Shown here: positions 2,735 through 8,644 of the stretch, one piece after another
Layout of the letters: each line of letters starts with the position of its first letter
Position numbering within the stretch: position 1 is the first letter of the stretch
Source of the DNA: Pseudomonadota bacterium
GTDB taxonomy: Bacteria; Bdellovibrionota_B; Oligoflexia; Silvanigrellales; Silvanigrellaceae
Assembly (NCBI GenBank): GCA_039799905.1
Contig: JBDLRP010000035.1
Coordinates: forward strand, 1 to 15,107
DNA: 15,107 bases
Reading direction: 5' to 3'
Notes under the pieces: generated by a model
Seen by the model: the letters and a program-made list of their open reading frames with translations, nothing else
Database searches by the model: none
Told to the model about the DNA's origin: nothing
Position numbers and translations under genes: made by a program

Positions 2735-3775
2735 TTATTTCTGACTGCTTTTTAATGTGGCAAGTTCTTTTTCAACATTTGCGTACTGACTGTCCAGCTC
2801 CGCCAACTTGTTGCGTGCTTCAAGGACTCCCTTTGCAAGTTCAACGGTCTGCCCCTGCAATTGCGTATAGAACTCCATTTTTGCTCGGGCTTCCGGACAC
2901 TCCACCTGTGTAATTTGTTGCGGAGCCGCCATTCCAAGGAGCTTGTCGATTGCGCCGTTGAGCGCCGTACCAACACCCGCCATCAAACCATTCATAACTG
3001 GAGTCAAAGCCAGTCCACTGACTAGTTTGATAAGCCCGAAGAGTTGCGCCTGACTCGCCCTTCTGATGGCTTCGTTGAGAGTACAGAGTGTCAGGGATTC
3101 ATTTGCCTCTTCGGCAGCACGGCGCATACCGTTGAAGTTTCCGTACAGTCTTCCCTCGGCAGTCATCATTTCCGAGAGAACTGCGATTTCATTTGCAGTT
3201 CTGGTGTTTCGGTATTCGATGCTCGGAGTTATTTCCAAGTCGTAGCTGCAACCCTGCTTGCTTGTAGCCGACGCGGTTTGGCTGACACATGGATTTACGA
3301 TGTAGTAGAAATTACCGTCGGTCGCCGCATAGTCGGTCACGGTTTGAGCGGTTGTGCTTGCTGCGATTGCACGGCATGCGGAAACATCTCCGCGCATTCG
3401 TTTGAAGGCTTCTTCCGCAGCAGTTCTGTAGTCAGGAGAAGACTTTGGAAGATCGGAAAGCTTCTGCAGTCCATCGCCGTAGACAAGTTCGAAACTGGCA
3501 CGACAGCGCCAGACCTCGGCGGAATCGGCTCCGCCAAAGGCTATTGTCACGACCGGAACATCGCCCTTGAGTCCTTCGAATCTCTTCGTTGCAGCGCTCA
3601 CTTTTGCCGATGCCTTGGCAGGATCCATGAGCGACTGTGATGTCAGATTTCCCGATTGGCCTCGCCGCGGCGCGGGTGCATCGACGCAAGCTGCCGTCGA
3701 TAGCACAAGCAATGGGATCGGTAACATTTTTGCTGCTTGTTTTGTGCAAGCTTTGATGTTTCGAATTGCACTCAT
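2735..3775 (-). CDS. Hypothetical lipoprotein, paralogue 3 (FN3-like domain + coiled-coil/hydrophobic hairpin)
   Basis: 346 aa ORF, lipobox LSTAA-C, ATGA overlap with the upstream stop. Motifs ADSAEVWRCR and TDYAATDGNFYYIVNPCV, hydrophobic LFGLIKLVSGLALTPVMNGLMAGVGTAL, C-terminal heptads. Confidence 0.8.
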   Translation of the reverse strand: MSAIRNIKACTKQAAKMLPIPLLVLSTAACVDAPAPRRGQSGNLTSQSLMDPAKASAKVSAATKRFEGLKGDVPVVTIAFGGADSAEVWRCRASFELVYGDGLQKLSDLPKSSPDYRTAAEEAFKRMRGDVSACRAIAASTTAQTVTDYAATDGNFYYIVNPCVSQTASATSKQGCSYDLEITPSIEYRNTRTANEIAVLSEMMTAEGRLYGNFNGMRRAAEEANESLTLCTLNEAIRRASQAQLFGLIKLVSGLALTPVMNGLMAGVGTALNGAIDKLLGMAAPQQITQVECPEARAKMEFYTQLQGQTVELAKGVLEARNKLAELDSQYANVEKELATLKSSQK

Positions 3776-4839
3776 ACCGGCTCCCCGAACAGTTTGAGAC
3801 TTTGATTGTATCCCTCGGCCTCAATTTCCATCTGCTGTTTGTCGATCTCGATTTCCTTGGCGAGGCGGTCCGCGGCAGGGCAAAAGTCAGCCGGTAGGAA
3901 GTCTGCCGCCTGTGCAGAAAGGTCCTTAAAAATACCCTTTACATCGAGACCACCGACGAGCGCTTTGGTGGCTGGATCTTGAATCAGGTTTGTGCCGAGC
4001 CCGATACCGATGTCGAGAATTTTGCCGATCGCCTCCCGACGCTTTTGCGAAACTCGGTTTGCACCGCGCTCTGCTTCACAACGTCCAATCTCGGTGTCCA
4101 ATTGCTTTGCCTTGTAAACCAGATTGCGACCGAGGCTGTCGACTCGATCACGCTGTGCTCTCACTTCTTCCTTCTTTTCTGCAGAAATCGACTTGAGTTT
4201 GTTGACGTAGCCGCGCAACTCCTGAGTCTTTGAGACTTGTCTGGAACAAGGGCTGACTGTCGCCTCGGTACTGTCGAGCGGGAGTCTCGAGGCTTGCACG
4301 CAGGCTCTTCCGACGTAAACCCAATTGCCGTCATTCGTGAAATAATCGACGAATTTGTCCACTGAAACACCCTGCGAGATCACGACACAGCCAAACGCAC
4401 TTGAAATGTTTTTCCAGTAGTCGGTCGTTTTATATTTTTCGTCGGCCACGGCTGTGTTGGAAGCGCCAATCTCAATGTTCTCGAGGTCGCCCAGCTTGGA
4501 GTCCGAACGGCAGCGGATAATCTGCACATAATCGGCCTTTTCAGGGAAGGAATAGCTGATAATCGGATACTTCACGCGGCTGAATTCAACGTATGAGACA
4601 TTGAACAGGTTCAGACGCATGGTTGCGCCGTCCATTTCGGCTGCGCTGATGCGCGACTTGACCTGTGTAGCTGAAAAGTTGGAGGCACTCTTGTTGTTCG
4701 CCGAGGAGCGCGGATTGCTTGCGCTTGGATCATTGCAGGCGGCAAGAAGCAAAGGAAGCAGCACGAAGCTCATCGCTCTGCCGTACCTGCGCGAGCCGTT
4801 CGGCTTTCCCATCAGGGGTTTTGCTGTTCCGGTTTTCAT
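3772..4839 (-). CDS. Hypothetical lipoprotein, paralogue 2 (FN3-like domain + coiled-coil/hydrophobic hairpin)
   Basis: 355 aa ORF, lipobox LLLAA-C, ATGA overlaps at both ends. Motifs ADYVQIIRCR and VDYFTNDGNWVYVGRACV, Gly-rich AIGKILDIGIGLGTNLI. Confidence 0.8.
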   Translation of the reverse strand: MKTGTAKPLMGKPNGSRRYGRAMSFVLLPLLLAACNDPSASNPRSSANNKSASNFSATQVKSRISAAEMDGATMRLNLFNVSYVEFSRVKYPIISYSFPEKADYVQIIRCRSDSKLGDLENIEIGASNTAVADEKYKTTDYWKNISSAFGCVVISQGVSVDKFVDYFTNDGNWVYVGRACVQASRLPLDSTEATVSPCSRQVSKTQELRGYVNKLKSISAEKKEEVRAQRDRVDSLGRNLVYKAKQLDTEIGRCEAERGANRVSQKRREAIGKILDIGIGLGTNLIQDPATKALVGGLDVKGIFKDLSAQAADFLPADFCPAADRLAKEIEIDKQQMEIEAEGYNQSLKLFGEPV

Positions 4840-7228: not shown

Positions 7229-7261
7229 GCCCTTCTCCCAAGTCACTCCGTCAAACTGTCA

Positions 7262-8644
7262 TTATTCCGCAGGACAATCGTTGCGGGTCATGAGAGCGAC
7301 GAATGCCGGACTGTTCTGAATTTGCTCGCTGCCGTTGTTCGACGGCCATACCAGCCTGTCACCTTGGAAGGTGAACGAGATTCCCGATTTCTCATAAACG
7401 AGCTGGTCGTTCGCAAAGATTGAGATCTTCGAGAGTGAACGGAGGTTCAGTTCATAGCGCTGGAAACCGCGCCAGTCGCCAATTCCAAAAAAGCCGGGTT
7501 TGTAAACAGGGTCATTCTGGTAGGCCACGCCCCCTTTTCTGATGCGCAATCCACGCAACTCCTGAACCTCGCGGTCTGCAAAGGAGTCAATGACGAATCC
7601 GCCTCCTGCGCGGAAGACTGAGTTCTGCGACTCATCAGAAATGACGTGGTTCATCGATTCGCCAAAGCTGAAGACGTATTCTTTCGAGTTGCCTGCATTG
7701 GCGAGCGCTCCGCCAGAAAGTCCCAAGTTCGAGTTCGGCAGCGCCGCTCCATCGACTTTGACCTGCAGTTTACGGATTTTTTGATAGCCCCAGCAGCCAA
7801 GATTCTCTGAGCCTGTGAGCTGTTTGATCATTTGGTCGTTGCGGTTCGTTTCACGCGCAATTTGTGCTTCCAGATCCGCAGGAGCTCCGGATGCGGGAGC
7901 TGCGGGCATGTTTGCTTTCGCGTCGTTCATTATCTGCGCAAGTTCATCCTTCTGAACAAAGCATTTGGGGTCTTGCTGAAAGGCAAGCAGTTTGTTCAGT
8001 GACACTTGGATTGAGCTGCCGCCGTCACTCAGGTCGCCGCGATCGAACAGCGCAGTTCCGTTAAGATACAGATTGAACGACGACACATTTGACGTGCTGT
8101 ATGTCGCGCTTTCGCTGCAGTTGTCAGAAACGATCCGCAACGACATATCGGTGAGTTCAATGACGCGCGGAGAACGTACGAGGGTTCCGTTTTTCGGCGG
8201 CAAAACGTCGCATGCGGATTTTGTCCGCGGGCCCCACGTGAGTTTCTGCTTGGATCCGGAGGCAACTGGCTGGGTCTGCCACAAACCATTTTTGGTTGTC
8301 AGAATCGCCTTGGTTCCGTTGGGAATACTGATGTCCATCTCAAAGTTTGAATCAACTTTGGCATTTGGATCAACACCCGAAACACAACCGAGCACAGTTT
8401 GATCGTCCTCAGGGCGCAAGCTCTTTGCGGCAACCGGACACTCGACGCGCTGCTTTTGTACACGCAAACAGAGCGCGTCGTTCTTGGCCTTGAGTTCCAG
8501 CAACTGTGAGAATGAACCCTTCTGCTGGGAATCCAGTGCGGCCTTGCCGAAGTTTGCGTTTCTGATGTTTGAGGGAAGGGACGGGGGCTCTGGCGAGCAC
8601 GCAGCCAACGATAAAGCGGCAAAAATAAATCTGGACTTTTCCAT
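7262..8644 (-). CDS. Hypothetical Cys-containing lipoprotein with two related beta-rich (PLAT-like?) domains
   Basis: Start reassigned to ATG 8644 (GAGGG RBS; MEKSRFIFAALSLAA-C lipobox). Long ORF ending in tandem stops TAA TGA. The two halves share visible similarity. CDS is secure; the fold call is tentative. Confidence 0.75.
   Translation of the reverse strand: MEKSRFIFAALSLAACSPEPPSLPSNIRNANFGKAALDSQQKGSFSQLLELKAKNDALCLRVQKQRVECPVAAKSLRPEDDQTVLGCVSGVDPNAKVDSNFEMDISIPNGTKAILTTKNGLWQTQPVASGSKQKLTWGPRTKSACDVLPPKNGTLVRSPRVIELTDMSLRIVSDNCSESATYSTSNVSSFNLYLNGTALFDRGDLSDGGSSIQVSLNKLLAFQQDPKCFVQKDELAQIMNDAKANMPAAPASGAPADLEAQIARETNRNDQMIKQLTGSENLGCWGYQKIRKLQVKVDGAALPNSNLGLSGGALANAGNSKEYVFSFGESMNHVISDESQNSVFRAGGGFVIDSFADREVQELRGLRIRKGGVAYQNDPVYKPGFFGIGDWRGFQRYELNLRSLSKISIFANDQLVYEKSGISFTFQGDRLVWPSNNGSEQIQNSPAFVALMTRNDCPAE

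Follow-up and report, generated by a model that had tools for sequence, protein, structure and literature searches.

The routes by which bacteria are known to place proteins in host membranes run through type III, IV or VI machines or through soluble toxins. The translocon of type III secretion (YopB/YopD/LcrV, IpaB/IpaC/IpaD) combines a tip or sensor protein with hairpin proteins encoded alongside it, each having one or two hydrophobic segments, and is inserted into the target membrane on contact. Toxins of the ClyA family (Hbl, Nhe, YaxAB, MakABE) have two or three paralogous helical subunits per operon, with hydrophobic hairpin tips. The chlamydial Inc proteins are an expanded, polymorphic family of energy parasites; they are type III secreted and carry a bilobed hydrophobic domain, made of two segments with a short loop, while their termini lie in the cytosol, which their coiled-coil domains face. 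Here we describe a gene set that resembles each of these in part. It lies at positions 2735-8644 of contig JBDLRP010000035.1 (assembly GCA_039799905.1) from a bacterium of the Silvanigrellaceae; the window below means the whole 15,107-nucleotide stretch analysed. The set comprises five co-oriented open reading frames (ORFs) on the minus strand, A, B, C, D and E, and is a real, conserved and undescribed multi-lipoprotein set. We propose that the five predicted lipoproteins form one surface-tethered complex which, on contact with another cell, probably a eukaryotic one, inserts the apolar hairpin tips of D and E together with C-type subunits into the membrane of that cell. We give this proposal somewhat less than an even chance.

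All five products are predicted lipoproteins. Gene A (7262..8644, 460 amino acids) would encode a long helix, a beta-sandwich, further helices and a C-terminal PLAT-fold domain (predicted local distance difference test, pLDDT, 81), and gene B (6059..7228, 389 amino acids) a vWA-like accessory subunit. Gene C (4836..6062, 408 amino acids) has an FN3-type head and a hairpin with a long variable insert. Gene D (3772..4839, 355 amino acids) combines an FN3 head (approximately residues 65-215) with a helical hairpin, and gene E (2735..3775, 346 amino acids) is a paralogue of D with the most apolar tip. As the initial annotation of this DNA had stated, three junctions are ATGA overlaps (6059-6062, 4836-4839 and 3772-3775), and the gap between A and B is short, at 33 nucleotides to the ATG or 15 to an upstream GTG. 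A lipobox cysteine is present in all five (residues 16, 22, 19, 35 and 30 in A to E), and each protein has 5-9 cysteines. The loose lipobox rule matches 494 of the 2724 ORFs of the genome (18%). Together with a lipase gene and an AgmX-domain gene, A-E form a run of seven lipobox genes, the longest in the genome; the other runs of at least three genes number six, each of exactly three. The lipobox is kept in 52 of 55 homologues of A, 13 of 13 of B, 26 of 26 of C, 64 of 64 of D and 64 of 65 of E (looser rule).

The residue after the lipobox cysteine is S, S, M, N and V in A to E, and thus never Asp, from which outer-membrane sorting had been deduced. The observation stands and the argument is weak: 8 of 219 lipobox-bearing homologues do have Asp at this position, and a passage in one report indicates that Lol-avoidance sorting signals differ among bacteria (PMC3222651), so that the rule does not settle the location. 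LolA is present. The main rival explanation, which we consider unlikely, is best introduced here. It places the lipoproteins on the inner membrane of their own cell, or bridging both membranes. The hairpins would then be inserted in cis, the bacterial cytoplasm would contain the payloads of the C-like proteins, and the role would be in structure, lipid handling or signalling. Near 16 loci there are OmpA-family genes, and near 6 a gene for signal peptidase II, as such an own-envelope complex might lead one to expect. Conversely, the inserts of the operon-type C proteins have conserved-looking cysteine pairs, as exported segments do.

No protein of the set scores above a Pfam or NCBIfam cut-off, and in these databases the homologues aligned with D, E and A had scattered weak matches only. 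Searching PDB sequences with the D, E, A and B profiles yielded E values of 0.015 or worse, mostly chance matches to coiled coils, and an Atlas search with E gave no usable match. Profile comparison shows that C, D and E are paralogues (D-E 3e-32, D-C 9e-14, E-C 1e-6), and they form separate clades across the class. The earlier description of three paralogous helical subunits is hence right about the paralogy and wrong in taking them as purely helical. In the AlphaFold model of mature D (mean pLDDT 73.5), a beta-sandwich head is followed by a long helix that leads outwards, a tip of low confidence and a return helix. The head (model residues ~30-180) has the predicted topology of a fibronectin type III sandwich, with structural matches at Z 7.3-8.2, root-mean-square deviations (rmsd) of 2.2-3.1 and, in most top rows, 87-95 aligned residues.

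The hairpin tips are Gly/Ala-rich helix-turn-helix segments. The tip of D (3880..4080) lies between the conserved Cys254 and Cys320 and is Gly-rich, with low model confidence; that of E (2897..3085), between the conserved Cys231 and Cys293, is a helix-Gly turn-helix with a hydropathy maximum of 1.52. This tip-flanking cysteine pair is common to D, E and C and presumably forms a disulfide. The expected membrane-type character of the tips is borne out across the homologues, whose best 19-residue segments have a median hydropathy of 1.57 for D and 1.72 for E, compared to 0.88 for A; the medians of C and B are 1.13 and 1.17, and a value of at least 1.5 is reached in 0 of 37 A and 0 of 12 B homologues.

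A PLAT-like domain had also been suspected, and the model of A (pLDDT 81.4, predicted template-modelling score 0.57) supports it. The model contains helices and two beta-sandwiches, the second of which (approximately residues 283-441; 7322..7798) matches the C-domain of 1olp_A with Z 8.3 and rmsd 3.2 over 112 aligned residues. The next rows, at Z 6.5-7.8, are R6IP1, lipoxygenase and lipase chains, and we take eight of the top nine to be PLAT-bearing. The predicted fold is that of the PLAT/LH2 proteins, such as the clostridial alpha-toxin C-domain, lipoxygenases, and pancreatic and lipoprotein lipase. However, no catalytic domain was recognised in A, and 0 of 43 A homologues match the Pfam PLAT model. 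A second PLAT domain was considered and is not claimed, because the internal repeat in A is weak by profile (E 0.0065, probability 6%). For B, the proposed vWA fold is only a lead, with an Atlas feature score of 0.85 (145 of 256 shared) and no Pfam match. B has a conserved D-x-S-E-N after a hydrophobic strand, which we take to resemble a metal ion-dependent adhesion site.

Because FN3, vWA and PLAT are all binding modules, and since the tips in the window are amphipathic, the set might also be a multi-subunit adhesin that does not insert into membranes and packs its apolar tips together inside the complex. Paralogues with full membrane-spanning segments and charge asymmetry argue against this explanation, to which we assign only a slight probability. 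It also seems very unlikely, if marginally less so, that the set is a fusogen joining the target membrane to the outer membrane of the bacterium or to its vesicles. A fusogen would account for the long hairpin with an anchor at one end and an apolar tip at the other; C-like proteins would arrive by lateral diffusion, and vesicle fusion would preserve the topology of their payloads. Yet the subunits are hetero-paralogues without a transmembrane anchor, and a viral structure search returned FN3-type and unnamed rows and no whole-model match (template-modelling score 0.26 or less). ClyA, translocon or fusion proteins were absent from the structural rows listed; as a single domain fills those lists, this excludes nothing.

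The set resembles the ClyA family in having paralogous hairpin subunits with apolar tips in one operon. It could be a multi-component pore-forming toxin, tethered to the cell, whose action is to lyse prey or grazers and not to deliver cargo, an explanation that we find unlikely, more so than the own-envelope complex. Apart from the Gly-rich tips of the hairpin paralogues, it draws on a weak match of the tip of E to the MakA hidden Markov model (HMM; E 0.011), on a homologue that bears the NCBI name glycine zipper family protein, and on the lipase gene that adjoins the operon. However, the MakA match, the only link to the family by sequence, scores 14.7 bits against a cut-off of 320. A lipid anchor and an FN3 head are not traits of the ClyA family, whose all-helical bundle differs from the predicted structure of D, and the PLAT and vWA-like subunits are additional. 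No immunity-like neighbour is conserved across families, and the large inserts in C and in some D tips (up to 269 amino acids) suit cargo better than a lytic pore.

Is there evidence that the subunits touch each other? The complex prediction for D and E scored 0.59, compared to 0.00 for the best control. Of 157 solved pairs, 116 reach the mark applied to this score, as do 2 of 215 mismatched pairs, and at 0.60 or less there are only 18 of the 157 solved pairs along with both mismatches. The runs share at least 30% of their contacts, and the pLDDT of the partners is at least 71. An inter-chain interface, as anticipated by the initial annotation, is thus predicted for this pair by modelling, and weakly. 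The natural D-E fusion protein P0065 (772 amino acids) and the fixed order of the two genes raise the support for this contact somewhat.

Scattered homologues had been named beforehand as an outcome that would speak against the complex. Instead, among the 90 loci surveyed around the best matches plus the window, D immediately precedes E in all 63 that have both, with a 4-nucleotide overlap in 35. Among 131 genomes of the phylum, the D/E family occurs in 46, nearly all-or-none by family. A is found in 42 of these 46 and in 0 of the 85 negative genomes, even where it is unlinked, and C in 37 genomes, all of them D/E carriers. The four carriers missed by the A profile belong to family f7, where a lipobox gene for ~700 amino acids stands at the position of A in loci with enough upstream sequence. 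The five-gene order itself was expected to be conserved; the synteny is there, but the order A-B-C-D-E is genus-level, and complete only in the window and at six more loci from the genus, in one of which a contig end truncates A. The conserved core is A, C, D and E, and B is accessory, present in 16 of 61 relatives and only in its own family. One locus is ordered A-B-D-E-C, and other arrangements are C-A-D-E, C-A1-A2-D-E and A1-A2-C-D-E, or else A-C and D-E lie at loci that are for the most part separate, A being split into two genes in several lineages. Several members of the genus have extra A genes, lone or tandem. In families f4 and f7, clusters (L061-L064, L095) contain a long C-like gene, a small lipoprotein gene, the ~700-amino-acid gene at A's position, D and E, with a conserved divergent gene upstream; in family f14, one locus (L081:1825-7095) has three more lipobox genes of ~375-407 amino acids after E, without a Pfam family.

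The window's own genome holds a second A-D-E locus (C29:23112-26904) and a lone D paralogue (C48:2184-3287). The former lies between mnmE-like and pal-like genes, a position common across the family, and such housekeeping surroundings would suit an own-envelope complex. That explanation does not account for the absence of the system from 85 of the 131 relatives, including all 13 of genus g5. A library-wide search found 317 clusters at E 0.001. Homologues are labelled Silvanigrellaceae and, where more distant, Oligoflexales; the few named clusters looked up were Oligoflexales, and the range may be wider. A search of viral contigs with a single protein as query gave no relative.

The type III translocon is comparable in organisation, since both have co-encoded hairpins with apolar segments alongside a tip- or sensor-type protein, and insertion into a target is proposed here too. 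In contrast with translocon proteins, which lack a Sec signal and depend on chaperones for export, A-E have conserved lipoprotein signals, conserved cysteines and predicted FN3 or PLAT domains. A cognate injectisome is also missing: SctV is over its cut-off in 0 of the 46 carriers and in only 2 of the 131 genomes, both non-carriers, and the match in the window's genome is below the cut-off, at FlhA level. Moreover, what is delivered would be a paralogue of the machine that spans the membrane, instead of a soluble effector. Taken together, the set would work as a type III translocon with Inc-like cargo while failing the defining tests of each known system. A full-text literature search, which did not extend to most subscription papers or to supplements, whose protein-family tables could list these genes, found no description of this system or of translocase-bearing Oligoflexales. 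This supports the claim that it is undescribed.

A possible function is suggested by the relatives. ATP/ADP translocase genes, which are typical of intracellular energy parasites, adjoin D-E in five loci. They occur in 17 of the 131 genomes, namely 16 of 16 of family f5 and one non-carrier of the D/E system (G021), and f5 is likely a family of intracellular parasites, apparently undescribed. Genomes of f5 (e.g. G044, G059, G068) have up to six translocase genes each. VirB4 and VipB were found in none of five f5 genomes tested; DotI (Dot/Icm) was likewise found in 0 of 5 genomes, a result that is uninformative because the search had no positive control. The f5 genomes have 4-22 matches to the C-type head each, compared to 1-2 in the other 20 positive genomes, with the reservation that 36 of the 48 rows of the head model come from f5 and that D heads may add a few matches.

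These stand-alone C-like proteins share an architecture of lipobox, head, helix, hydrophobic segment, variable payload, hydrophobic segment and return helix. We compared 40 regions from C-profile matches with a second set of 20, chosen for long frames from head matches. Of 40 complete ORFs, 35 have two segments that both reach a hydropathy of 1.2 (27 at 1.5), as do 16 of 21 in the second set; ORFs without both were left out of the flank counts. Per 12 residues, the payload-facing flanks have 1.8-2.7 Lys/Arg versus 0.6-0.9 Asp/Glu, and the flank after the second segment has 0.3-0.8 versus 1.4-1.8; ahead of the first segment, the residues are acidic in the first set and slightly basic in the second. 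Cysteine makes up 0.08% and 0.10% of the payloads versus 1.95% and 2.39% of the residues outside them; for comparison, neighbouring ORFs have 1.23% and coiled-coil-like windows 0.37%. The payloads span 12-849 amino acids, and only two pairs are similar. A Pfam scan of 62 proteins (60 stand-alone C-like, 2 long-tipped D) had two that passed a cut-off, one with TIG domains on the head side and one with IQ motifs within the payload. The latter, a C-like lipoprotein at L173:319-2535 (+), has calmodulin-binding IQ motifs around residues 427, 553-571 and 585, in the stretch that separates its hydrophobic segments (PF00612, 41.9 bits; cut-off 20.3), and calmodulin is eukaryotic. Motif counts were 4 versus 1.0 for NPxY, 5 versus 1.4 for PxxP runs and 2 versus 0.26 for IQ (0.015-0.025, uncorrected over five motifs). 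Another C-like protein (L127:2151-4313 (-)) has two NPxY and one EPIYA-like motif just after its first hydrophobic segment.

Similar to the Inc proteins, the C-like family is expanded and polymorphic, with two hydrophobic segments, in likely energy parasites. It differs in that, judging from composition, the cytosol-type part is the loop that joins the segments, and the two ends of the protein would make up an FN3-hairpin that is exported and lipidated. Possibly, this represents needle-less effector delivery from lipoproteins only, in which PLAT subunits sense the host membrane and the D-E pair serves as insertase. Polymorphic C-type paralogues would come to span the membrane of the host or of its vacuole, and their loops, including the one that bears calmodulin-binding motifs, would thereby act in the host cytosol. 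The system would then be the missing host-manipulation machine of this uncultured Oligoflexia family of energy parasites. We advance this as a tentative suggestion that could well prove wrong. An alternative explanation is again the own-envelope complex, for which two segments with basic inner flanks are ordinary inner-membrane topology; the IQ motifs in a payload, and unrelated payloads in up to 22 copies, remain unexplained by it.

In the proposed insertion into another cell, conserved lipoboxes and cysteines suggest that A-E would be exported by Sec, lipidated and disulfide-bonded, and then transferred to the outer surface. A may bind target lipid through its predicted PLAT fold, and B may add vWA-type adhesion in its own lineage. 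The D-E pair, for which the weak prediction, the natural fusion and the fixed order speak, would form and drive the hairpins into the target bilayer. C would be a variable passenger: the two-segment pattern of its paralogues is seen in their sequences, and in the parasites these may span the host membrane twice and leave the payload in the host cytosol. The window's organism has one C, with amphipathic helices only, and anchoring to or breaching a target cell, perhaps helped by the adjacent lipase, is the likely use there. Its genome is without translocase, ankyrin repeats, VipB, RcpC and extra C genes, and the target could therefore be an alga, a protist or a bacterium; lacking cargo-type features, the machine may anchor or breach and not deliver.

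Several observations weigh against insertion and delivery. The D-E score lies in a weak band, and the apolar character of the tips in the window is no more than moderate (C 1.2, D 0.82, E 1.52). The head model is dominated by rows from f5, which is one clade, and translocase and C expansion therefore count as one event. A eukaryote-specific Pfam match within a payload was found in only one of the 62 scanned proteins, and EPIYA-like motifs are not enriched. The absence of translocase, ankyrin repeats and extra C genes from the window's genome belongs here too, as does G021 (1.8 Mb, 94% complete, genus g5), which has a translocase, no FlhA-level match and no D/E system. The C protein of the window aligns with the second, not the first, membrane segment of the cargo-like proteins; the tip of E aligns with both, at low confidence. 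Furthermore, positive-inside flanks and Cys-poor loops are just as compatible with insertion into the inner membrane of the bacterium itself, and Sec transfer would normally be stopped by segments whose hydropathy exceeds 2.

The core idea of the initial annotation, a membrane-engaging surface complex, still stands as a prediction from sequence and models, with the emphasis shifted to host-membrane insertion with polymorphic cargo. Its example of prey contact found no support. Neither RcpC, of the Tad-type (Kil) prey-contact apparatus, nor VipB, of type VI secretion, was found in the window's genome, and the relatives point to eukaryotic hosts. Part of one report classes Silvanigrella and Fluviispira as non-predatory (PMC11656739), and a passage in another presents predation by Oligoflexia as suggested and unconfirmed (PMC10385382). 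Co-occurrence with Tad was rejected, with RcpC in 2 of 46 carriers versus 18 of 85 non-carriers. A link to a FliF-FliG-like motor was also rejected; it occurs in 20 of 131 genomes, among them 0 of 16 of f5 and 3 non-carriers. Two long ORFs of the window's genome have FliG-like C-terminal domains (C29:99813-102359 and C19:91928-94201), each beside stator-like genes; the C19 protein lies near a 2137-amino-acid lipoprotein and does not co-distribute with the lipoprotein system.

The surroundings of the operon are partly conserved. A class 3 lipase with a lipobox (1429..2664, minus strand; PF01764, E 3.5e-27) follows E in 9 loci, and an AgmX/PglI C-terminal domain lipoprotein (830..1489, minus strand; NF033768, 64 bits, cut-off 40) follows the lipase in 7, both in the genus only; either may be an accessory. 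The lipase has four further paralogues in the genome (contigs C17, C24, C39, C52). A hairpin just 3' of the E stop had been taken to bound the unit, but it folds no better than chance (z -1.33; 21 of 200 shuffles fold as well) and is absent from the terminator list of the scan. The 3' boundary is therefore not established, and the transcript may include the lipase and AgmX-domain genes. On the other side, the divergent intergenic region (8645..8850) is AT-richer, as claimed, with 36% GC at 8691-8790, and is the presumed promoter; the scan found no sigma-70-like site there. Divergent from the operon, an 814-amino-acid protein (8774-11218, plus strand) has four LGFP repeats and a beta-rich uncharacterised middle, and its gene is kept beside the operon in 6 loci of the genus. 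The next gene overlaps it by 4 nucleotides and occurs in 4 loci of the genus; its 664-amino-acid product (11215-13209, plus strand) has an N-terminal membrane anchor and HEAT-like repeats (weak PF13646), reminiscent of lipid-transfer (vitellogenin-type) proteins. Short RNA contigs from two metatranscriptomes map to A, C, D, the junction of B and C, and the lipase and AgmX-domain genes, whereas 8700-13300 has none; the runs were chosen together with this stretch and may hold DNA, and they were not used as evidence. A single low-depth contig at 1363-1531 shows 25 differences, mostly G to A, possibly from error or another strain.

If the proposal is true, lipid-tethered paralogous hairpins with a diverged machine subunit as cargo would be a different delivery principle. 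Its cargo genes can be enumerated from the 190-residue head profile. Under the own-envelope explanation, too, the set would be an undescribed envelope complex, with ~317 sequence clusters. It offers a testable handle on how a widespread, little-studied and uncultured group of aquatic bacteria, including ATP-importing likely parasites, engages other cells.

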